Part shown: piece by piece, positions 37,485 through 49,372 of the stretch
How the letters are laid out: each line of letters begins with the position of its first letter
How positions within the stretch are numbered: position 1 is the stretch's first letter
Origin: Shigella virus Moo19
Sequence record: MZ358387
Direction: 5' to 3' (one strand)
Length of the DNA: 64,000 nucleotides
The notes under the pieces: model-generated
The model's database searches: none
The model's input: the letters and a program-made list of their open reading frames with translations, nothing else
Told to the model about the DNA's origin: nothing
Position numbers and translations under genes: made by a program

Positions 37485-37566
37485 GGGGGAGTAGTCAAGC
37501 GGTCGAAGACGGCAGACTGTAAATCTGTTATCCCACACGGTAGTTCGAATCTACCCTCCCCCACCA
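37485..37566 (+). tRNA. tRNA-Tyr (anticodon GTA), 10-nt variable region, CCA encoded
   Basis: Hand-folded cloverleaf: acceptor GGGGGAG/CTCCCCC, T-loop TTCGAAT, anticodon loop CTGTAAA. Confidence 0.65.
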
Positions 37567-37567
37567 C

Positions 37568-37642
37568 GGTAAGTTAGCTAATTGGTGAAGCGGCTGACTG
37601 TTAATCAGTGATAGAGTGGTTCGAGTCCACTACTTACCGCCA
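37568..37642 (+). tRNA. tRNA-Asn (anticodon GTT), CCA encoded
   Basis: Hand-folded: acceptor GGTAAGT/ACTTACC, T-loop TTCGAGT, anticodon loop CTGTTAA. Confidence 0.7.
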
Positions 37643-37647
37643 CATTA

Positions 37648-37724
37648 CGGAGTTTAGCTCAGTCTGGTAGAGCATCTGCTTTGGGAGCAGAGGGTCGTAG
37701 GTTCGAGTCCTGCAATTCCGACCA
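37648..37724 (+). tRNA. tRNA-Pro (anticodon TGG), CCA encoded
   Basis: Hand-folded: acceptor CGGAGTT/AATTCCG, D-arm GCTCAGTCTGGTAGAGC, anticodon TGG. Confidence 0.7.
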
Positions 37725-37730
37725 AACAAT

Positions 37731-37806
37731 TAGGGGTTAGTTCAGTTGGTAGAACATCGGACTTTGATTCCGAATGTCACAGGTTCGAATCCTGTACCCC
37801 TTGCCA
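37731..37806 (+). tRNA. tRNA-Gln (anticodon TTG), CCA encoded; position 1-72 is T-T (unpaired)
   Basis: Hand-folded: D-arm GTTCAGTTGGTAGAAC, anticodon loop CTTTGAT, T-loop TTCGAAT. Confidence 0.6.
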
Positions 37807-37808
37807 AA

Positions 37809-37884
37809 TGCTTCATAGCTTAGTAGGTAGAGCACACCCCTGATAAGGGTGAGGTCATTGGTTCAAATCCAATAACGGACGCCC
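37809..37884 (+). pseudogene. tRNA-Ile(GAT)-like element with non-complementary acceptor stem (possible pseudo-tRNA)
   Basis: D-arm, anticodon arm (CACCC-CTGATAA-GGGTG) and T-arm are canonical, but 5' TGCTTCA cannot pair with 3' AACGGAC. Confidence 0.4.
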
Positions 37885-38112
37885 AATTTGGCAGTAACAT
37901 AGTCCTGATTGTATAGCACTCTAAAGACAACACTGGTAAGACAGTCCAGTGGCTGCTAATATATTGTTATTCCCCTCGACGGGAATTTCGCTGGAGAATA
38001 GGAACTCCTTAAATCCTAGCCCTGATGAAGTAGTGGACTATCAATCCATCCTCGCTCTAGTGATGAGTACTACTGAATCTGCAAGCCTCCCAGCTATGGG
38101 TAAATAGTACTA

Positions 38113-38148
38113 AGCCCCTCAGAGCCGTCACTCTGGGGGGCTTTTTTA
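38113..38148 (+). terminator. Rho-independent terminator (11-bp stem gcccctcagag/ctctggggggc + T6)
   Basis: Read directly; ends tRNA-region transcript. Confidence 0.7.
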
Positions 38149-38176
38149 TTCGAACAATACAAACACTGAGGAACCT

Positions 38177-38599: not shown

Positions 38600-38835
38600 T
38601 GTCGTTAACTGAAATCATCCGAAATTCTATTATCGAAACGGATACCCGTGGCAAAGCCTTTGACTTTATTCAACGCGAAGCAGGTGTACCCCGTATCGTA
38701 GCTAAGAGACTACTGTTCTCTTTCCTCTGGTTCCCTACTGAGGAAACACTCCAGAAGATTAAAGATAGTGGTGGTGATGATTTACCTGCCGATATCAAAA
38801 GCAACCTGGAAAGTGCAGTAGCAGCAAAGCTGTAA
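38599..38835 (+). CDS. Hypothetical protein (78 aa)
   Basis: ORF track. Confidence 0.4.
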   Translation: MSLTEIIRNSIIETDTRGKAFDFIQREAGVPRIVAKRLLFSFLWFPTEETLQKIKDSGGDDLPADIKSNLESAVAAKL

Positions 38836-38840
38836 AAATT

Positions 38841-38872
38841 AAAGCCCCTCTAATGAGGGGCTTTTTTATTTT
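38841..38872. terminator. Bidirectional terminator (aaagcccctc-taat-gaggggctt flanked by A-run and T-run) between convergent + and - transcription units
   Basis: Read directly; T/A tracts on both sides. Confidence 0.7.
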
Positions 38873-41800
38873 AGTTTACCAGATTCATCCAAGGGTTGAG
38901 GTTATGAGCACGTAAGCCCTGACCCAATCCGATAGAGTAATCCAGTCTACCATCAGCAGCAGCCGAGAACAGGTTATCCTGTAATGGCAGACCAACGTTA
39001 CCAAACATGGTAGGAGTTGGAGCCAGCATAGCCATAGCTGCATGAACAGGGTTATTACGAATCATGGACACTGCAACTTTAGTAGAACGAATCTTAAAGT
39101 TATAGAACCACATCAGACCCATGCTTTCCATGTAACCACGGAAACGACCCGGCAGACGGTCATAGTTAATGAACTCTTCGGTAACACGACCCAGAGCTTC
39201 TTCCTTACTCTTACCTTTACGCTTAGTCAGTTCATCATAGATGATTGCTTTAGCAATAAAGTCAGAGTACTCAACCGTCTTCTGGATACCCTGGAACAGA
39301 GCAGTATCCTTAGTGATAAGTGCATAACGACCAGCAGTTTGCAGCTTCTTAGGCAGCTTATCTGCTAAACGCTGCATGTACTCCTGTACCTTACCATCCG
39401 GGATTAACAGGTCATCACGAGAGATACCAGCATCAGCAATAGAAGAGAACTCACCAGCTTCCAGCAAAGGCCAGATACTCATACGCTTATAGCTATCATT
39501 GATGGACTGAATCTCAGCTTTCAGTTTACGAGCCTGGTTCGGATTAGTAGTTGCACGAAGTTCTGCTTCAGCATCAACCTGGCGAAGACGAGACTTCATA
39601 TACTGGTTAATCTCAGCAGTCTTCTGAGGGATACCTTTAGCAATATCCTTAACTGGAACACCACGGGCAACCATCTGATAGAGGTTAGCCAGGAAGTTCA
39701 CAGCAGGAACCACGAGAGACTTGACCACGATTAAGGTCTTAGCCTCACGTACAACCGTCTGAGTGATATTCTCACCCTGCATAAAGTATTTGTATGCACG
39801 GTTGCCAAATACGCCCAGCATTGCTTTCTTGAAGGTATCCAAAGTCTCAGGTGACCAACGAGAGTTACCAGTCCATACATCACCAACAGAAGCAGCACGA
39901 TAACCAAGTGCATCATTCAACATGTCACGACGTACCCACAGTTCACCATTACCAAACAGTGACTCAGCTTTCTGACGAGTTTCTGCATTCATCAGACGCA
40001 TAGCATCAGCAGTAACTGGGTCAAGTTTAGAACCAAGAAGGTTAATGTACTGGCTCTTATTGCTGGTAGAATCTGCCATGTCCTTCTCGTACATAGCGTG
40101 AAGATTTTCAATCAGAGCATCGTTAAACTTCTGGGCTTTAGCTTCTTCTACCTGACGACCTCGCCATACACCAATTGCTTTAGCAAGGTTATCCTCACCA
40201 GCAATGTGAGTCAGCATGTTAGGGTCAATAGAGTGCTCATAAGCAACCACACGACCATTGCCATCATAGATAGGCATCAGTGGTTCATTACCACGTTCAC
40301 CCTTCGCCAGAGCTTTGGTGATACGGTCAACGGAAGGCTTGTCAGTAATACGACCAGCAACCATTGTTCCCATTGTGAAGCCAGTACCAACATCCACACC
40401 ACCAGCAGTATTACGAACGTTCTGGAGAATACCCTGTGAGTATGGAGCACGAGCAGCAACCGGGCTGAAGTAGTAACCACGACTACGAGTACGTTCACCA
40501 GAGCTACCCTGATAACCAGCAATACGAGTGAATGACTTCTCACTCAGTTCGTTAAACTGGCTGTCTTCTGCAACAATCAGGTTAACACCCTGCTTAGTCT
40601 CAGAAGGAATGTAGCCTTTGTAGTGGTTCAAACGAGCACGGTCATCATTCTGTGCTTTACGTTTCTCTTCCACACGCTGGCCTACCAGATAGGAAGTGAC
40701 AAAGTCCATACCTTCGGTTTCAGTCTGAGCCAGGGAAGCTAATGCCTCACGGTCAGCCTGACTCATTGCTTCGATGGCATACAGAGTAATCAGCTTGTCT
40801 AAGGTGTCCACATCAACGGTAGATTTAACGCTGGTACGCTCACCTAACAGACGGGAGATTGCCTCAGCATTACGCAGCAGGTTGTTACCGACAGTACCAT
40901 TAATCATGTACTGAGCCAGTTGCTTAGACTTACGGTTAATCAAAGGCCAGTTACGTCCTGCCTGATTCTGGAGGTCAGCTTCCAGCTTATTAACCAGCTT
41001 ATCCATTTCTTTCTGTGAAGACAGCAGGTCACGAATTTCACCCAGACTCATGGTGTCACGCAGTACAGCAAGGTCAGTTTTACCCATACCAGTGTGCATA
41101 GCTTTCCACTCTGCATCAGTCAGCTTACGGCTGAACTTAGAAGCAATAGTGGTAGGCAGATGCTCACGGAATTGCTGACGGTCAGCCTGTACCTGAGAGC
41201 GAACAGCTTTAATCATGTCATAGACAGAAGCATTCGACTTAGTACGACCTACGATGTCATTAACCAGGTCATAGAAAGGTTGCCATGCTTTTCCCTGGTT
41301 CATTGCAGCCATAACACCCTGTGCAACTTTCTCACCGTTCTTCTCAGTAGCAATAGCAGCTACCAATTGAGCAGCATGAGCAGTTGCCTTAACCAGTGGG
41401 TTCTTAGCATTAGCAGCAACATCACGAGCAGTATCCAGTGTGGCATCAGCCAGACGTTCTACACCATCAACAATATATTGGTTAGCACGGTCAATCATAT
41501 TCCCAGTTGGGGTAGCAACAGAGTCATAGAAGGACTGAGCATTCAGGCTGGATTCCATAATAGTTTCTGCCAGAGCATCAATACCTTCCTGAACGTTAGT
41601 TGCTTTGGTATCACCAGCAACACGCTTGTTCAGGCTATCCATTGCAGCTACGCCAATGTTAGTCAGCATTGCATCAATAGTATTACCGGATGCTTTATCT
41701 GCTTTCATAACAGGCATGTCAGTCAGTACGTTACGTACCTCTTCGCTTACCATTGCCAGACCAACAAAGGTAGGCAGTAAGGAAGAACGACCCTGAGCAT

Positions 41801-44800
41801 CAAACTCAATATTGTTAGCACCCATCAACGTATCGAACTTCTGTTGAGCATAGTAACGGTCAGCAGGGTTAGTGCTGTTCGGGTCTGCCATGAAGTCTTC
41901 TACTTTCAGGTTCTTGGTAACGTGAGTGTAATACTCCTGAGCACGAGCCAGAGCAGCAGGATGAATTGCAGCCTCAGTTGCTAGTGCAGCAACAATGTTG
42001 GTGAACAGACGACGTTCTTGCATGTTCATAGTAAAACCATGCCCCTGAACATCACGAGTTACCTTAACTGCATTCACTACTGCGTCAGAGAATTTACCCT
42101 TACGCATATGTTGCTGTACCGGGTCATTACCCAGGTAGTTCGTAATGAGACGGTCAAAGGTTTGACCCAGTGAAGTAAGACGGTCATTGTTGCCATAAGC
42201 AGTGCTATGGAACAGGGTAGCCTCAGCAGTAACCGGAGCAACCGGAGGCTGTGAACGCATCACTACAGCAGAGTTAAACAGCAGACCGGAGAACATATCT
42301 TCACCGTAAGCAGGGGCTTTCTTACGACCAAAAATGAGGCGTTTAATTGCTTCATAAACATCTTTAACCATCCTGGTAAGAGCAGTGGTTTTCTTCTGCT
42401 TCTTAATCAGTTCATGGTTGGTTAAGCCCCATGCCATGTACTCATTCAGTGCAGCAGCTTTAGCCATTGCTGGGTCAATGAAACCGTTGGACAGATGACC
42501 ATTGATAGTATCCAGTGCATCAGCGTAAGCCTCACGCATAGCCGGAGTATCTTTGGATACATCCAGACTACGGAACTGTTCCATCAGATTCTCGATGTTC
42601 TGTACAGCTTCATTGGTCTGGCCTTGATAGTGGTCAAGTACAGTCTCAAAAGTAGAAGCATGAACCAGTTCATGAATCAAGGTTTCCATTGATGGGCTAA
42701 CCAGGTAGACAGTCTTATCTGCAAAGTTAGTCCAACCATAGATATTACCTGCATTTGCAGCTTCAATATCTTCTGGAGCAGGACGCTCTACGTTACGTTC
42801 CATTGCATACTGGTCAATCTGGTTCACGTTACCGTAAACAACCTTGTAGCCTTTAGCAGCCAGTGACTTCTGAATCTCATTCAGTACAGCAGCCTGTTCA
42901 ACAGGAAGGTTGGACTCTTTAGCCAGTTTGTTAATAGCAGTCTGAGACAGCACACGAACACCAGACTTCAGAGCACGGCCTACAGTATCAAACTTATTAG
43001 TATCGGCTACTGGAGTCTTCTCAGCTTTACGAGCCTCTTTACGAGCCTGCAATTCAGCATCGAATAGCTCATTCAGTTTTGCTACTTGCTGGTCAACAGT
43101 CAGACCATCCAGAGAGATATTACCGTTGTTCACATAAGGGGAACCAACAGCAGCCATCTGGTCAACAGTAGTCTGTACCTGGTTCATTACCTTGTGACGG
43201 ATATCGACACCCAGAGCAATGTTACGCAGGTTACGCTCAATAAGATTAACACCTGCTTTCTCAATCATATCAATCTTATACTGCCTGTCACCATCAACAC
43301 GACTGATATGAGAAAGTTGTTCAAAATCCAAAGCAGAACGGGCAATACTATCAATTGCTTCATCTGATAACTTATTGAAATCTACATTTTTTACAAACTT
43401 AGAGAAGGAGTCATACACATTCTTGATAGGGTTACCCTGCCATGAAGTGTATACAGCTTCGTTAGCCTTACGGCTTGCATCAGTGATGTCATTGATACCG
43501 ATGTTCATACCATCAAAGATTTTGAGAGTATTTTTCGGTGCACCTTTCATAATAGAAAGGGTCTGCATCATCATGCCGTCACCAGTACCAATCGTCATGA
43601 AAGGAATACCAGCAACACCAGCTTGTGACGGTGCATAGATGCTCATTGGCACACGCATACGGTCATCAAAGTTGGTAGCCAGAACCTGGTTAGCAACATC
43701 AGTATTCTCAGAACCAGCAATGTAGAAAGTCTGGGAACCAGTCTCAATCATTGGAGCTAAGTCAGACAGTGAAGCCTGAATATCGTTAAGCTCTTTCTGA
43801 GTTAAGAAGTCACCCTTCTTCCAGTTAGGGTCTTTTTCTTTTTCTGCCAGCTTCTCCTGGACACGTTGCTGGAACATGTCTTGCAGAACCAGAGACTGAA
43901 TCTGGGTAGCTTTCTGAAGCTGTTCAGTGGAGTGCATCAGCCCTTCACCAACAGTATTCTGAATACCCTGTCTCATTGGTTCAACGAAAAAGTGCAGCAT
44001 GTTCTCTTGCAGAGACTTCAGTTGCTCACCTTTGACAGTGAACTTCTGAGGGTCAATCTTGCCAGACATAGCAGTACCAGTGTCTTCAAGAGACAGTTTA
44101 CCTTTACGCATAACTGGAACAGTACCAGTCAATGCTTTCATGTCTTCAATGAAACGACCGAGCATAGCCTCAGCATCGGCCTCAGATGCTGCCTGCTTGC
44201 CGAACATTGCCATAGCCGGGGAAATGTCCGGGTTCTGTGCACGGGCTTGCAGAACGTCGCTGAAGCGTTCGTAGATGGCATCAGTAATTGCACTCACCAT
44301 CTTGCCTGCAATACCACGAGCACCGGAACCATAAATGGTAATGGTCAGTGGGTTCTTGGCAATGCCACGTTTCAGTTCGAGGTTGCCTTCTTCATTGATG
44401 TTATAGTCAGGAATGAACAAGTCCATCAGAGAGGACAGATGATTCATCTGAGTATTAACAGCCGGGTTATTGGCATAGGTATTTCGCAGGTTAGTCAGTG
44501 CAGCTTTCAGACCGTTAGTGGATGCTTCGTACAGGTCAACGCTATCGTCAATAGAACGATGTTCGTTCATCGTCTTACCAGCACGACCAAAGAATAGACC
44601 ACCCTTAGCAGTATTCTGTACCCATTCTTTGGTGAACTTACCACCAGTCATCAGCATCATTGCGTTAATCGGACCGTTGGTTACACCATCAGCCTCAACG
44701 TACAGTGGAGTGTTGAACTTAGACTTGTCTTCAGCATTCAGGTAACGGGCATACTCCATCAGAGCCATGAGAGCTACGAAGGATTTATCACCACCCAATG

Positions 44801-47800
44801 CAGTATTCAGAATCTCAACAGAGTTATCTGGCAGGTTCCCAGTTTTATCGAAATCAACCATCATATCGACAGCAGGTTTCAAATTGCCTTCCAGTGCAGC
44901 AGTCAGTTTTGCTGACATTGCCTCACGAGACATGTTGTGAACCTTGATGCCCAATGCCTGAGCCAAGCCAACCTGGAAATCAGAGAAGGTCTGTGAGTTT
45001 TCATTGGACAGGTCAATAGTAGAAAACGTAGGCAGAATAGCTTCACGAACCAGCTTACTGGACTGAGGATTATTCTTACCAAGCATCTGCATACGACCAA
45101 CACGAGTCATGTTGTAGGCATAGTGGATTGGAGTTTCCAGTCCGTTTTCCTGTGCACGAGTTTGCTCTACCACACTAAACAAGGAATCATAAGCCATAGC
45201 TACTGACAGGTTTTTACCTTCCAGTGACTTAGCAGTATTCACATTCAGCAGTTCAGGATTAAGCGTACCAGCACCCATCAATTCCAGAATCTTGTCACGA
45301 CCCATAGCCTCATAGAAGTTAACCATAGGTTCATGAATACGGAACTCAGTAGCCTGTTCTGCTTTCAGAGCAGCTTTCTGTTCCGGGGTATTCTTAACAG
45401 CAGGGTTGCGTAACTGAGTCTGAGCCACAGAAGGTACGTCGTCACCGAAGTACATTTTCTCTTCTGGTTCTACCAACACAGCTTCTTCAATTGCTGTAGG
45501 GAATTTATTGATAGGGTCATTGTCTGCCAGCTTATCAATGGTATACAGACCAACAGTCTTAGTGGAGTCTGGGTCAATTTCAGAGACATCTAGCATAGTC
45601 TCAGTAACTTCACCTGCTTCAATAAGAGCAGACAGAATCTCAGTTGCCATAGCAACAGGGATACCTTTGGTATAACCCAGTGGTGCATTAGGGTTACGGT
45701 CAAAGCCCCAGTAAGATTCAATTTTCTGAGCCAGTGAGTTAGTAGCTTCAACGAGAGTCTGAGCATTCTCAAACATCTCAACTACACCTTCCGGTAACAG
45801 AGCCTGTTCAATACCAGTAATAGCAGCCACGTCTTTAGCATCTTTAACGGCAGCATTCTGAGTAGCAGTCAGTCGCCATTGCAGACCAGCAAGTACGGCA
45901 GTTTCAAGCAGAGAATCGTTGAACTTAAAGCTATTGCCATCTGGTTCAACAATATTCAGCAGCTTACCACCAACCCAACGGTTAGCTTCAGTGCCCTCAG
46001 CAAAACGCTTACCTACGTTCTTGTTAGACAGGAACTTAGCCAGTCGGTCATTCAGAATGGATTTAATGTTTTCACCCGTGTTCATCAGGTCTTTATAACG
46101 ACCAGATACATCAGGGGTAAGAGCAGTATTCTCACTCTGAGTAAACGTTTCGAAACGTGCATTAGAAGACAGAGCCTGACCAATATCTTTCATTGGAGAC
46201 TCGGAACCAGTGGTACGAGACTTAGGTTCAGCAGGTAATGAGTAAGCAATCTTGAGGTAATTTTTTACCCCAGGCTGGCTGACATCAGTACTCCCAACCA
46301 AATCAGGATAAGCAGCGTCAATACCACTACGAGTGGATTCCACTTCATTAGTAGTTTCCTCAGTATTTTCAGTAACATCCTCGATGCTACCCTCATTGAT
46401 GAGGGTAGCATCCTTTGCCTTTTCGGATTGAGGCTTAGTTACTTTCTCTGGTTCTGCCTTAGACTCAGTAAAAGGAGCACTATTTTCTACCGTCGATTCC
46501 CTATTAGGAGTTACAGTAGGTGCAGCCTCCTGAGTTTGTGCAGGAGTTTCGTCAACTTGATTCACTGGTTCATTAGTCTGTTGGGATTGAGCAGCGTCAA
46601 GATTGCCCTGACGGAACTCTTTAACCACCTGGGCAGCAGGCTTGTCCAGACGTGAATCCAATGAGGTAACATTGATATGAGAAACGTTAAGCTCCGGGTA
46701 AGCCGTAGCAAGTGCATTAGCAATATCAGCTACGGTTTTGGCTTCCAGTCCTACTTGCTGGGCAAACTTAACCGACTTGGTATCGTAAGGATTAACACCG
46801 AGTCCAGTACGACTTCTTACCCATTCACGGGAAGGGGTGAGGGCTTGGTAATGGACAGACTTATTCTTATCCGCATTCCCAGAAATCAGATGTTCATTCA
46901 ACGCTCCGACCTTGTTCTGCATGTGCTGGGCGAACTGCATAAAGTCGCTCAAATAAGCGGAAGCCAAATCGAAGTTACCAGAGTTATACGCAGACCGAAT
47001 GCGTTTAGCATGTTGCAACGCAGAGTACTGGCCTTCATTAGAACGAGACTCGTCGGTTTTAATCTGTTTACCCACAATGTCTTGAGGCCGTAAACCAAGC
47101 TGTTCAGCTTTGGTATCAAACTCACGTGCTCCCTGTAATAGAGCAGCAGCGGATTGCAGGGCAGCACGTTGACGATTGTTCAACGTAATCTTGCCTTCAC
47201 TCGCATGTTTCAGAACCATGTTCACTGAATCAGCGTCCAGTACTTCCGGGCTTACGTCAGCAGCCATTGCTACGTTGTTAGCCTGATTCTGGTCTGCTAC
47301 ATCTTCGGTCACATTCAGATTACCTTGTTCAGCTTGTTCCTGAATCATGGAATGAATGGCACGGAATGCACGAAGTACCTTTGGAGTATTCTGGATGTTA
47401 GCCATCAGACCCGAATACTGGTCGAGCACAGCATTAGCAGGACTATCTTTAGGCAGATTGTTCAGTGCAGCAGGGTCACGGTTAACGAAGTCTTCCATCT
47501 GCATAACCATGTCGTACATATTGGCAGCAGCTTCCATCATCTGGTTCGGGTCTTCAGTAGTGTTAACTACATCAGCCAGTTTCTGGATTACCTGAACTCG
47601 GTCAGTGGAACCGTTAACAGCTTCCTGAACCACAGGAGAAGCATCAGCAAATTCTTCCGGGTTAATACGGGTAGCATTAACCAAATCACTTGCATACTGG
47701 TGTGCAGCAGCCTTCTCTTCAGGAGAGATGTCCATTGCTTCAACAGCATCAGCCATAGTTGCCTGAGCAGTATCTGCTTGTGCAGCAGCTTCCTGAGCAG

Positions 47801-49310
47801 CCTCAGCTACTTTAGCGTCAGCAACAGGAGAAGCCTCTTCATTGCGTCGTGCAACTTCTTCACCACGTTGAACCAGGATATTGGTAATAGGTGAAGCAGC
47901 TTTAGCTACGACATTACCAGCAGCGTTAAGACCAGCCAGGGTAGTACGCAGAGCAGGACCAGCAGCAGCACTTGCAGCTTTAACAGCAGAGCCAGGAGCT
48001 TGAGCAACTCCAGCAGAGCCGAAGCCATAGAGTGCACCCAGACCAGCTTGCTCACCCACACCTTTGAGTGTGTCACGGGTAGCATCAACGTTACTCCGAA
48101 TTGCACGGTTCTGTGCATACTGACCAGTACCAGACTGAATACCTTCTTCCACAGTCTCACGAAGCATGTTGGAACCAGCACCAGCAAGTGAACCTACTTT
48201 CAGTGGATTCAGTTCAAACTTGGATACCAGTGGACCCGTTGCAGCAGCAACCGGAGCAGTGATAGCAGCAGCATCAATACCTGTTTCAGAAGCAGTCTGA
48301 CGACGAGCTTCATCTGGAGAAAGACCATCTTTGATATGTTGCTGATAAACAGGAGACTTAGCAGCCAGTTCTTCATGAGACATTTTCATAATCTCAGAAG
48401 CAGTTTGCTGATAAGCACCACCAGCTTCCATTGTGCCAATAGCAATGGCAGCAGGAGCAACCTTAGAGGCAGCATTAACCAACTGTGCAGGACGATGGCC
48501 TAATTCAGCAGCAAGTGCAATTGCACGAGCAGCTTTTTCACCACCCATTACAGCACGACCTAATGCAGCAACCCCTTTAATAAGAGGACCACCCGTAAAC
48601 AGTGAGCCTACTCCTTCGCTCAATCCATCTGTTGCAGCCATACCAGTGTCAAGAGTGTTGGCAACAGAATCATAAGCGTCACGGCCAATACGAGAAAGAG
48701 AAGCGACCAAATCACTCTCGCCATCTTTAATATCCTGTTCGTATAAACGCTGGTTTTTCTGAGCAGATAGCTGGTTCTGGTTCTGAACTACTTTACGGGA
48801 AAGATTTAAAGCATCAGACTGAAGACCATGAACACCTTCATTCAACCAGTCCATGCCACTAGCTATGGTAGCACCAGCATTATCGTTGATAAGACCTGTT
48901 CCAAGAGAAGCAATGCCCCCAAGGGTATTAGCAACACCAAGACCAACACCAGAAAGAGAATCACCAATTGCTTCTGCATTCGTTCTCTCTCTGGATAAGT
49001 CCTGACGAACAGAATCGGCTGCATTAGCACGGCTATTAAGAATACGAAGACCTTCTTCGGTTCCATACTTAGCAATAAGTTCCATTGGGGAGGCTTGAGT
49101 AAAATCAGCCTGAAGTGAACCTGGTTCGAATGCACCAATGCCGAGATTACCTACCCGACCTGTTTGAAGGTTATAGGCAGTATCTGGGGTGAGTTGGAAA
49201 GGGTTATACCCTTCAGCAGCTTGCTTCTGGGAGGTTGCAGTAGAGACATCGACTTGCTTAGCATTAGTGATGCTGTCTGCGAAACCTGCCAGTCTGTCAA
49301 ATGTTGACAT
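38871..49310 (-). CDS. Virion-encapsidated giant RNA polymerase (N4 vRNAP gp50-like), ~3479 aa
   Basis: Size; T7-like motifs in central part (YVEADGVTNG; RGIAKNPLTITIYGSG; KIFDGMNIG), the two Asp 392 residues apart; ATG 49310 has aggaaa RBS (track start 49352 is GTG). Confidence 0.85.
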   Translation of the reverse strand: MSTFDRLAGFADSITNAKQVDVSTATSQKQAAEGYNPFQLTPDTAYNLQTGRVGNLGIGAFEPGSLQADFTQASPMELIAKYGTEEGLRILNSRANAADSVRQDLSRERTNAEAIGDSLSGVGLGVANTLGGIASLGTGLINDNAGATIASGMDWLNEGVHGLQSDALNLSRKVVQNQNQLSAQKNQRLYEQDIKDGESDLVASLSRIGRDAYDSVANTLDTGMAATDGLSEGVGSLFTGGPLIKGVAALGRAVMGGEKAARAIALAAELGHRPAQLVNAASKVAPAAIAIGTMEAGGAYQQTASEIMKMSHEELAAKSPVYQQHIKDGLSPDEARRQTASETGIDAAAITAPVAAATGPLVSKFELNPLKVGSLAGAGSNMLRETVEEGIQSGTGQYAQNRAIRSNVDATRDTLKGVGEQAGLGALYGFGSAGVAQAPGSAVKAASAAAGPALRTTLAGLNAAGNVVAKAASPITNILVQRGEEVARRNEEASPVADAKVAEAAQEAAAQADTAQATMADAVEAMDISPEEKAAAHQYASDLVNATRINPEEFADASPVVQEAVNGSTDRVQVIQKLADVVNTTEDPNQMMEAAANMYDMVMQMEDFVNRDPAALNNLPKDSPANAVLDQYSGLMANIQNTPKVLRAFRAIHSMIQEQAEQGNLNVTEDVADQNQANNVAMAADVSPEVLDADSVNMVLKHASEGKITLNNRQRAALQSAAALLQGAREFDTKAEQLGLRPQDIVGKQIKTDESRSNEGQYSALQHAKRIRSAYNSGNFDLASAYLSDFMQFAQHMQNKVGALNEHLISGNADKNKSVHYQALTPSREWVRSRTGLGVNPYDTKSVKFAQQVGLEAKTVADIANALATAYPELNVSHINVTSLDSRLDKPAAQVVKEFRQGNLDAAQSQQTNEPVNQVDETPAQTQEAAPTVTPNRESTVENSAPFTESKAEPEKVTKPQSEKAKDATLINEGSIEDVTENTEETTNEVESTRSGIDAAYPDLVGSTDVSQPGVKNYLKIAYSLPAEPKSRTTGSESPMKDIGQALSSNARFETFTQSENTALTPDVSGRYKDLMNTGENIKSILNDRLAKFLSNKNVGKRFAEGTEANRWVGGKLLNIVEPDGNSFKFNDSLLETAVLAGLQWRLTATQNAAVKDAKDVAAITGIEQALLPEGVVEMFENAQTLVEATNSLAQKIESYWGFDRNPNAPLGYTKGIPVAMATEILSALIEAGEVTETMLDVSEIDPDSTKTVGLYTIDKLADNDPINKFPTAIEEAVLVEPEEKMYFGDDVPSVAQTQLRNPAVKNTPEQKAALKAEQATEFRIHEPMVNFYEAMGRDKILELMGAGTLNPELLNVNTAKSLEGKNLSVAMAYDSLFSVVEQTRAQENGLETPIHYAYNMTRVGRMQMLGKNNPQSSKLVREAILPTFSTIDLSNENSQTFSDFQVGLAQALGIKVHNMSREAMSAKLTAALEGNLKPAVDMMVDFDKTGNLPDNSVEILNTALGGDKSFVALMALMEYARYLNAEDKSKFNTPLYVEADGVTNGPINAMMLMTGGKFTKEWVQNTAKGGLFFGRAGKTMNEHRSIDDSVDLYEASTNGLKAALTNLRNTYANNPAVNTQMNHLSSLMDLFIPDYNINEEGNLELKRGIAKNPLTITIYGSGARGIAGKMVSAITDAIYERFSDVLQARAQNPDISPAMAMFGKQAASEADAEAMLGRFIEDMKALTGTVPVMRKGKLSLEDTGTAMSGKIDPQKFTVKGEQLKSLQENMLHFFVEPMRQGIQNTVGEGLMHSTEQLQKATQIQSLVLQDMFQQRVQEKLAEKEKDPNWKKGDFLTQKELNDIQASLSDLAPMIETGSQTFYIAGSENTDVANQVLATNFDDRMRVPMSIYAPSQAGVAGIPFMTIGTGDGMMMQTLSIMKGAPKNTLKIFDGMNIGINDITDASRKANEAVYTSWQGNPIKNVYDSFSKFVKNVDFNKLSDEAIDSIARSALDFEQLSHISRVDGDRQYKIDMIEKAGVNLIERNLRNIALGVDIRHKVMNQVQTTVDQMAAVGSPYVNNGNISLDGLTVDQQVAKLNELFDAELQARKEARKAEKTPVADTNKFDTVGRALKSGVRVLSQTAINKLAKESNLPVEQAAVLNEIQKSLAAKGYKVVYGNVNQIDQYAMERNVERPAPEDIEAANAGNIYGWTNFADKTVYLVSPSMETLIHELVHASTFETVLDHYQGQTNEAVQNIENLMEQFRSLDVSKDTPAMREAYADALDTINGHLSNGFIDPAMAKAAALNEYMAWGLTNHELIKKQKKTTALTRMVKDVYEAIKRLIFGRKKAPAYGEDMFSGLLFNSAVVMRSQPPVAPVTAEATLFHSTAYGNNDRLTSLGQTFDRLITNYLGNDPVQQHMRKGKFSDAVVNAVKVTRDVQGHGFTMNMQERRLFTNIVAALATEAAIHPAALARAQEYYTHVTKNLKVEDFMADPNSTNPADRYYAQQKFDTLMGANNIEFDAQGRSSLLPTFVGLAMVSEEVRNVLTDMPVMKADKASGNTIDAMLTNIGVAAMDSLNKRVAGDTKATNVQEGIDALAETIMESSLNAQSFYDSVATPTGNMIDRANQYIVDGVERLADATLDTARDVAANAKNPLVKATAHAAQLVAAIATEKNGEKVAQGVMAAMNQGKAWQPFYDLVNDIVGRTKSNASVYDMIKAVRSQVQADRQQFREHLPTTIASKFSRKLTDAEWKAMHTGMGKTDLAVLRDTMSLGEIRDLLSSQKEMDKLVNKLEADLQNQAGRNWPLINRKSKQLAQYMINGTVGNNLLRNAEAISRLLGERTSVKSTVDVDTLDKLITLYAIEAMSQADREALASLAQTETEGMDFVTSYLVGQRVEEKRKAQNDDRARLNHYKGYIPSETKQGVNLIVAEDSQFNELSEKSFTRIAGYQGSSGERTRSRGYYFSPVAARAPYSQGILQNVRNTAGGVDVGTGFTMGTMVAGRITDKPSVDRITKALAKGERGNEPLMPIYDGNGRVVAYEHSIDPNMLTHIAGEDNLAKAIGVWRGRQVEEAKAQKFNDALIENLHAMYEKDMADSTSNKSQYINLLGSKLDPVTADAMRLMNAETRQKAESLFGNGELWVRRDMLNDALGYRAASVGDVWTGNSRWSPETLDTFKKAMLGVFGNRAYKYFMQGENITQTVVREAKTLIVVKSLVVPAVNFLANLYQMVARGVPVKDIAKGIPQKTAEINQYMKSRLRQVDAEAELRATTNPNQARKLKAEIQSINDSYKRMSIWPLLEAGEFSSIADAGISRDDLLIPDGKVQEYMQRLADKLPKKLQTAGRYALITKDTALFQGIQKTVEYSDFIAKAIIYDELTKRKGKSKEEALGRVTEEFINYDRLPGRFRGYMESMGLMWFYNFKIRSTKVAVSMIRNNPVHAAMAMLAPTPTMFGNVGLPLQDNLFSAAADGRLDYSIGLGQGLRAHNLNPWMNLVN

Positions 49311-49372
49311 AGCTTGTTTCCTGTTCAAACTTATATCTATAAGAGAACTCACTGTACATTAAGTGAGGGTAA

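Follow-up and report, generated by a model that had tools for sequence, protein, structure and literature searches.

A hybrid pseudo-tRNA, very likely left by a single deletion in the hypervariable RNA-gene island of an N4-like phage

The tRNA-like element that follows the four tRNA genes of Shigella virus Moo19 (MZ358387) is very likely a hybrid pseudo-tRNA, produced by one deletion in a hypervariable island of RNA genes of an N4-like phage. The element has two parents, a tRNA-Ile(GAT) gene on its 5' side and a CCA-less tRNA-like gene on its 3' side, and the breakpoint between them lies in a stretch of seven nucleotides. The DNA that separates the two parent genes in a relative is absent, and the junction is unique among the sequences searched. 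Because its two acceptor strands come from different genes, they never belonged together, and hence they do not match. The window referred to below is the whole stretch of 64,000 nucleotides that was analysed.

The window belongs to an N4-like podophage (Schitoviridae, Enquatrovirinae). Over 10 kb around the tRNA cluster, identity to Escherichia phage Jgk1 and Gamaleyavirus phages is about 80-83%, and the counterpart of a minus-strand ORF of 3493 codons (38871-49352) is annotated as the virion RNA polymerase in these relatives. With default settings, ARAGORN calls four tRNAs in the whole 64-kb window, arranged as one head-to-tail cluster (37485-37806). They are exactly the Tyr-GTA, Asn-GTT, Pro-TGG and Gln-TTG genes that the initial annotation had described as well formed; each is matched end to end by the Rfam tRNA covariance model, with full-length scores of 59.8-69.3 bits, and each encodes its CCA. 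The features of the region are collected in Table 1.

Table 1. Features of the tRNA cluster, the hybrid element and the adjoining RNA (window coordinates)
Feature	Coordinates	Strand	Remarks
tRNA-Tyr (GTA)	37485-37566	+	canonical, CCA encoded; ARAGORN; Rfam tRNA 62.2 bits, full length
tRNA-Asn (GTT)	37568-37642	+	canonical; ARAGORN; Rfam 59.8 bits, full length
tRNA-Pro (TGG)	37648-37724	+	canonical; ARAGORN; Rfam 66.2 bits
ACCAAACAAT, one copy	37721-37730	+	tRNA-Pro 3' end and spacer
tRNA-Gln (TTG)	37731-37806	+	U1.U72 mismatch; ARAGORN, Rfam
Hybrid, part 1	37809-37850	+	5' acceptor strand, D arm, anticodon arm (GAT), start of variable loop; from tRNA-Ile(GAT)
Hybrid 5' acceptor strand TGCTTCA	37809-37815	+	read from sequence
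Hybrid D arm GCTT/GAGC	37818-37833	+	read from sequence
Hybrid anticodon arm CACCC-CTGATAA-GGGTG	37835-37851	+	anticodon GAT at 37842-37844; read from sequence
Crossover interval GAGGTCA	37851-37857	+	microhomology of both parents; AGAGGTCA, 8 nt, in Jgk1
Hybrid variable loop AGGTC	37852-37856	+	read from sequence
Hybrid T arm ATTGG-TTCAAAT-CCAAT	37857-37873	+	read from sequence
Hybrid, part 2	37858-37884	+	T arm, AACGGAC, CCA-less trailer; from tRNA-like gene before terminal RNA block
Hybrid 3' acceptor strand AACGGAC	37874-37880	+	followed by GCCC in place of A-CCA
Conserved structured non-coding RNA	37886-38150	+	adjoins the hybrid, not part of it; co-oriented with the tRNAs
P1 of downstream RNA	37891-37895/37952-37956	+	covariation
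P3 of downstream RNA	37931-37936/37946-37951	+	covariation
Hairpin, loop CTATCAA	38034-38048	+	covaries
Intrinsic terminator	38112-38150	+	

The fifth element (37809-37884) receives no call from ARAGORN at default settings. With the Rfam tRNA model the match is confined to 37816-37873 (positions 8-63 of the 71 in the model; 50.1 bits, E=4.5e-9). This is far too strong a match to be due to chance: the D, anticodon and T arms derive from a tRNA, and the acceptor stem is absent. All three arms are paired in the Rfam alignment, with an anticodon loop of 7 nt and a T loop that conforms to TTCRANY. Compared with E. coli tRNA-Ile, positions 8-63 show 87.7% identity, and the anticodon arm does not differ at all. 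The initial annotation was thus right to liken these arms to those of tRNA-Ile(GAT), and right also that TGCTTCA is not complementary to AACGGAC: positions 1-72 to 7-66 read T.C, G.A, C-G, T.G, T.C, C.A and A.A, and with one Watson-Crick pair and one wobble (G.U) only two of the seven are pairable, which is about chance level. The 3' strand is followed by GCCC and not by ACCA, so that the discriminator and CCA, both encoded by the intact Ile genes of relatives, are missing. No canonical fold had been overlooked. A 'tRNA-Ile(gat)' in a shifted register (37812-37880) is obtained only when the ARAGORN threshold is lowered to 90%, and this fold is degraded, with two mismatches and two wobbles in the acceptor stem, a D stem of 3 bp and a T stem of 4 bp.

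The comparison with the tRNA clusters of related phages, which the initial annotation had proposed, is what explains the element: both parents are intact in Jgk1, and the 5' parent is intact in two further sequences. In Jgk1 (PV292302; coordinates as L003) the same Tyr-Asn-Pro-Gln genes are followed by an intact tRNA-Ile(GAT) (L003:2249-2324) that begins with TGCTTCA, ends with TGAAGCA-A-CCA and scores 68.8 bits over its full length in Rfam. The metagenome contigs L020 and L026 (Ga0224735_1189 and Ga0224730_1039), which share 94% identity with the window on either side of the fifth element, likewise carry the four tRNAs and an intact tRNA-Ile(GAT) (L020:2368-2443), whose acceptor strands are TGCTTCA and TGAAGCA as in Jgk1. 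ARAGORN calls the intact tRNA-Ile(GAT) genes of relatives. Like those of Jgk1 and L020, the element of the window stands directly after tRNA-Gln and has the same 5' strand, TGCTTCA, and the same D and anticodon arms; but whereas the genes of the relatives continue into the T arm ACTGG-TTCGAAC-CCAGT, TGAAGCA and A-CCA, the hybrid switches to the corresponding parts of another gene.

That other gene is a second tRNA-shaped gene of Jgk1 (L003:3374-3502), without CCA, which lies about 1.1-1.18 kb downstream of the Jgk1 tRNA-Ile. It consists of the 5' strand GTCCGTT, the D arm GCTC/GAGC, ~70 nt in place of an anticodon arm, the T arm ATTGG-TTCAAAT-CCAAT and the 3' strand AACGGAC, followed by TCCC, and its minimum-energy fold has closed acceptor, D and T helices. 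Gamaleyavirus phages carry a shorter homologue in the same place, also intact (GTCCRCT ... AGTGGAC-A-CCC), and the anticodon region is highly variable among relatives, being a normal arm, a form ~10-15 nt longer, or the ~70-nt insert. The gene is found upstream of the terminal RNA block in CU10EC, PBM-3, PhAPEC7, Bas96 and UE-S5a, and across the Enquatrovirinae it has been annotated as tRNA-Ile(AAT), tRNA-Xle, tRNA-Val or tRNA-OTHER (PMC11927229). The T arm, 3' strand and trailer of the window (37858 onward) are homologous to it, whereas its own 5' strand (GTCCGTT or GTCCRCT) and D arm, and with them the whole 5' part, are absent in the window.

Similarity changes partner inside the fifth element, the match to Jgk1 running up to about 37871 and that to Gamaleyavirus phages starting only at about 37852-37854. 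In blastn, window positions 37721-37871 correspond to L003 2161-2311 (93.4%) and positions 37851-37958 to L003 3474-3581 (91.7%), and these two matches to Jgk1 overlap only in the T-arm region, at 37851-37871. Bases that distinguish the two parents are of the tRNA-Ile type up to 37850 and of the tRNA-like type from 37858 on, which places the crossover within GAGGTCA. This heptamer occurs in Jgk1 at L003 2291 and 3474, a distance of 1183 bp; the longest exact run common to the two Jgk1 parent regions is AGAGGTCA, of 8 nt, and 17 of 21 positions match. On the 3' side, positions 37851-37880 are identical to the Jgk1 tRNA-like gene at 30 of 30 positions (L003:3474-3503). On the 5' side, the first 49 nt agree with the L020 tRNA-Ile at 47 positions, and the differences are at 37821, where the D-stem pair C13-G22 becomes U.G, and at 37825, in the D loop. 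All changes of the tRNA-Ile part relative to the relatives are compatible with a cloverleaf, which neither proves nor excludes continued constraint. The T stem ATTGG/CCAAT was considered as a compensatory change and rejected, as it belongs to the tRNA-like gene.

In the ancestor, tRNA-Gln would have been followed by an intact tRNA-Ile(GAT), then by non-coding RNA-like blocks totalling ~1 kb, and finally by a tRNA-like gene without CCA that immediately preceded the conserved terminal non-coding RNA. The two tRNA-type genes resemble each other in the variable loop and T arm, and recombination or replication slippage between these regions would have removed the DNA between the two genes, with the crossover inside the shared heptamer and a loss of 1183 bp relative to Jgk1. 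In the product, everything from the 5' strand to the anticodon arm would come from tRNA-Ile, and the T arm and 3' strand from the tRNA-like gene. From the relatives, we infer a deletion of about 0.8-1.2 kb. The exact ancestor was not found in any database; Jgk1 represents the 3' parent, and L020/L026 are closest to the 5' parent. Both halves are no more diverged than the flanking DNA, and the deletion therefore looks fairly recent, rather than the outcome of slow decay. The reverse polarity, an insertion in the relatives, was rejected: it would require that two complete cloverleaves be built from one mismatched element, and the 3' gene is intact in the Gamaleyavirus outgroups. These two points together place a deletion in the lineage of the window. 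An attP-like remnant of integration into a tRNA gene was also rejected, both halves being phage genes of lytic N4-like relatives.

Recombination between short similar stretches of tRNA genes is known to delete the intervening DNA and can leave a fused gene. Tandem copies of E. coli tyrT can lose one member by recombination, phage T4 mutants with deletions in the tRNA cluster have been described, and tRNA pseudogenes occur in organelle genomes. Unlike these cases, the event proposed here had different genes as partners, so that the acceptor strands mismatch, and the exact homology is only 7-8 nt. Two degenerate patterns of the junction found no second instance in IMG/VR or the GTDB genomes, nor did the stricter of the two in JGI metagenomes, and no phage record was found that covers 80% of 37790-37960. 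Look-ups of three flanking ORFs as exact proteins likewise yielded no near-identical genome.

Other rearrangements are visible at the same locus. In Jgk1, two copies of ACCAAACAAT (L003:2065 and 2161, 96 bp apart) flank an extra tRNA-like unit; this 96-bp unit sits between the Pro and Gln genes and is absent from the window. In phages of the EC1-UPM type the tRNA-like gene is missing between CACCYATT repeats, and EC1-UPM has been reported to be without tRNA (PMC3853248). The gain or loss of units through short homologies is recurrent at this locus.

The segment that Jgk1 has and the window lacks (about L003 2298-3480) contains no ORF of more than 85 codons and consists of non-coding blocks conserved in many N4-like phages; these blocks have no match in the window. 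One of them aligns to the tag region of the Rfam permuted-tmRNA model, with 47.8 bits in Klebsiella phage VLCpiP4a (gathering score 47), 34.7 bits in Jgk1 and 33.1 bits in JZBo1. It reads GCAAACGATGATGTTGTTCTGATGGCTGCTTAA, which gives ANDDVVLMAA-stop, and its 20-mer is present in six of the related loci compared; in the window it is not found even when up to 3 mismatches are tolerated. No mention of this tmRNA-like block was found in the literature searched; searches on hybrid tRNA genes in phages, and on tmRNA or non-coding RNAs in N4-like phages, returned nothing specific and only routine tRNA counts. A hypervariable RNA-gene island is seen in N4-like phages of E. coli and Klebsiella, and holds tRNAs, tRNA-like genes with intact acceptor and T arms and aberrant anticodon regions, the tmRNA-like block and the terminal structured RNA. 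The window represents a natural deletion variant in which most of the island is lost and the terminal RNA is kept.

The RNA that adjoins the hybrid is a candidate new phage RNA family. Across 20 distinct versions its first ~70 nt are almost all invariant, in surroundings of 10 kb with ~80% identity. The block is more conserved than the coding flanks, and it is present with or without a preceding tRNA. Covariation in P1 and P3 was tested on an alignment that included more distant versions from Kaypoctavirus, HK2 and pSb-1. For the two helices together, 100% of cells are paired and 8 of 11 pairs have changed on both sides, a result reached by none of 500 shuffles (0/500). When the registers of P1 and P3 are shifted, covariation is lost, with at most one pair still changed on both sides. 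The RNA corresponds to no Rfam family, and no paper on it was found in the literature searched.

The position of the hybrid, 5 nt upstream of this conserved RNA and co-oriented with it, together with its intact D, anticodon and T arms and an anticodon arm identical to that of the host tRNA-Ile, raises the question of whether the element functions as a tRNA-like structure, either as a decoy for an anticodon nuclease or a modification enzyme, or by giving the downstream RNA a structured 5' cap or a signal for processing. An 8-bp inverted repeat, TGCCAAAT (37802-37809) and ATTTGGCA (37886-37893), also brackets the element, is used in its minimum-energy fold and, on that model, could in principle close a tRNA-like three-way junction. 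A functional role is nevertheless unlikely. The junction is unique in the four collections searched, so that there is no conservation across genomes, and the 'tRNA-like structure with another role' that had been suggested gains no support, its junction occurring in no other sequence searched. In relatives the downstream RNA is preceded by an intact tRNA-like gene, by an ORF or by nothing, and the hybrid is therefore not needed by that RNA. A selected fold was not seen, either for the element alone (z = -0.79) or with its flanks (z = -1.32), the folding being no better than that of shuffles. The inverted repeat overlaps the covariation-supported 5' strand of P1, and its GG variant is found also in contigs that lack an upstream tRNA-Gln. 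Given this competition with P1 and the occurrence of the variant, the idea of a closing helix by design was rejected, and the repeat is regarded as chance.

The cluster and the block that follows it are co-oriented and run into an intrinsic terminator, and the hybrid is thus probably transcribed with them. RNase P needs stacked acceptor and T helices, and IleRS uses the acceptor stem and A73 besides the anticodon. Without an acceptor helix, A73 and CCA, the hybrid would be neither matured by RNase P nor charged by IleRS; judged from these known enzyme requirements, it is probably neither cut nor aminoacylated. Rather than a new kind of RNA, it is most likely the remnant of a dead gene, which would either be degraded or remain attached to the 5' end of the downstream RNA as an inert leader. 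It is very unlikely that the deletion product is not inert, the acceptor-less tRNA-Ile body, fused to the 5' end of the downstream RNA, acting as an uncleavable decoy for a host enzyme that targets tRNAs or as a stabiliser of that RNA, and that loss of the tmRNA-like block was adaptive. If true, that loss would represent adaptive remodelling of a phage RNA island.

It is highly improbable that the element is an artefact of assembly or cloning in which two T-arm regions were joined because of their similarity. The junction does lie in a stretch that is similar between the two genes, and no second sequence confirms it. However, the longest exact run shared by the parents, 8 nt, is far below the k-mer lengths of assemblers, both flanks are collinear with relatives, and natural deletions of the same style occur in several relatives that were sequenced independently.

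The body of the element, at 50.1 bits as a tRNA with unpaired ends, has the look of a pseudogene, and the initial annotation had offered a decaying pseudo-tRNA as one possibility. The pseudo-tRNA part of that proposal holds, but not decay as its origin, for the halves are identical at 47 of 49 and 30 of 30 positions to two intact genes. That a normal tRNA-Ile lost its acceptor pairing in situ by accumulated point substitutions is scarcely credible. Five of the seven positions of the 3' strand would have changed, versus only 2 positions in the 42 nt upstream; the T arm and 3' strand are those of a different Jgk1 gene, without a single difference; the trailer downstream carries on the context of that tRNA-like gene; and the 1183 bp between the two genes in Jgk1 are absent from the window.

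In relatives, this island contains permuted tmRNA-like signals, so that permuted genes of tRNA-like type are conceivable in the family. That the element is a split or permuted tRNA, completed by a strand encoded elsewhere or by unusual processing, is nevertheless extremely unlikely: GTCCGTT has 5 sites in the window, all of them distant (45140, 57995 and 58380, on the + strand inside genes) or in the element itself; none of the 27 TGAAGCA sites in the window has tRNA context, the nearest (37427) lying upstream, inside an ORF and with no T arm beside it; TGAAGTA at 38027 is inside the downstream RNA and is present also in L020, where tRNA-Ile is intact; no tmRNA or permuted gene is called by ARAGORN, even in its tmRNA mode and with the thresholds relaxed; the 20-mer of the tmRNA-like block is, as noted, missing; and the strands that the element lacks are to be found in the intact genes of relatives, no complementary strand with tRNA context being nearby.

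On its own the hybrid matters little; its explanation is ordinary, and it adds one more case to a type of event already known. It does show, in a clean and datable way, that deletions between conserved parts of tRNA genes can reshape the tRNA arrays of phages, and it warns annotators that an acceptor-less 'tRNA-like element' can be two fused genes. Its value is as a pointer to the RNA island, in which the downstream RNA is more interesting than the hybrid itself.

A minor irregularity of the cluster concerns tRNA-Gln, for which an unpaired T1-T72 position had been noted. The mismatch is real, Infernal flagging model positions 1/71 as non-canonical, and it is conserved among related phage tRNA-Gln genes. 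The gene of the window is identical to that of Jgk1 and differs by 1 base from that of L020, and the U1.U72 mismatch is common to the tRNA-Gln of Jgk1, L020 and VLCpiP4a, the last of which is otherwise E. coli-like. In E. coli, the 1-72 pair of tRNA-Gln is weak and is opened by GlnRS, and an unpaired 1-72 is therefore expected to be tolerated or even favourable; the mismatch is no defect and no sign of damage.

Downstream of the hybrid, the pseudo-tRNA formed by joining parts of two genes through a deletion, lies a conserved, structured non-coding RNA of ~265 nt. This RNA is found in N4-like phages of E. coli, Shigella and Klebsiella, independent of what precedes it. Covariation is strong in its helices P1 and P3, where both sides have changed in 8 of 11 pairs while pairing is retained in 100%, a result obtained in none of 500 shuffles. 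Covariation extends to a hairpin whose loop, CTATCAA, is invariant. No Rfam family corresponds to this RNA, and a literature search found no paper on it.

The inverted repeat that flanks the hybrid is probably due to chance. Its arms, TGCCAAAT and ATTTGGCA, are paired in the minimum-energy fold of the hybrid with its flanks, and this fold is no better than those of shuffled sequences (z = -1.32). The repeat also overlaps P1 of the downstream RNA.

Coordinates of features in the window and in loci of related phages
Feature	Location	Strand	Remark
tRNA-Gln	window 37731-37806; L027:1258-1334 (Klebsiella phage VLCpiP4a)		U1.U72 mismatch
10-nt repeat ACCAAACAAT	window 37721-37730; L003:2065-2170 (Escherichia phage Jgk1; spans both copies and the tRNA-like unit between them)		discriminator, CCA and spacer
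Inverted repeat TGCCAAAT / ATTTGGCA	window 37802-37809 and 37886-37893		perfect, 8 bp; flanks the hybrid
Structured non-coding RNA	window 37886-38150	+	3' end is an intrinsic terminator
tRNA-like genes	L003:3374-3502; L011:1148-1232; L010:1156-1234; L002:1452-1527		RNA island of relatives
tmRNA-like block	L003:2396-2586 (Jgk1); L027:1354-1575 (VLCpiP4a)		Rfam tmRNA_permuted match

In relatives the site of the hybrid falls within a hypervariable island of RNA genes, among them tRNA-like genes that do not encode CCA. The anticodon regions of these genes differ widely, although their acceptor, D and T arms are perfect: the forms include a normal arm with AAT, an arm ~10-15 nt longer, one with a ~70-nt insert, and one with an odd loop, in which ARAGORN reads a 2-nt anticodon. 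The perfect arms, the divergence of the anticodon regions and the lack of an encoded CCA together suggest that the role of these genes is tied to their acceptor/T half and not to decoding.

A tmRNA-like block of the same island occurs in Jgk1 and VLCpiP4a, and in four further N4-like loci (L002, L007, L009 and L028). The VLCpiP4a copy scores 47.8 bits against Rfam tmRNA_permuted (gathering score 47); ARAGORN makes no call on the block. Within it is a tag-like frame, GCA AAC GAT GAT GTT GTT CTG ATG GCT GCT TAA, which reads ANDDVVLMAA-stop, and the block may represent a phage tmRNA-like RNA. It is absent from the window, having been removed by the deletion that made the hybrid.

Units of the tRNA cluster itself also vary. 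In Jgk1, tRNA-Pro and tRNA-Gln are separated by an additional tRNA-like unit of 96 bp with ACCAAACAAT on either side, whereas the window and the metagenome contig L020 have a single copy of ACCAAACAAT without the unit. Identical 3' trailers seem to be the route by which tRNA units of this cluster come and go. The adjoining tRNA-Gln has the same U1.U72 mismatch in the window, Jgk1, VLCpiP4a and two metagenome contigs (L020 and L026); since it is conserved across these relatives, the mismatch is a feature of their tRNA-Gln genes, not damage.

Further downstream, the last plus-strand ORF, ending at 38835, and the minus-strand virion RNA polymerase gene, ending at 38871, are separated by a hairpin (38841-38864) that is GC-rich and symmetrical and has a T-run on each strand. 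This hairpin resembles a bidirectional terminator where two converging transcription units meet.

The heptamer TGAAGCA/TGCTTCA occurs 27 times in the whole window against 11.9 expected, a count reached in 0 of 100 shuffles. Most of the sites are in minus-strand orientation and fall at 39.5-61 kb; the virion RNA polymerase ORF (38871-49352) is on the same strand. The excess is probably a codon-pair effect.
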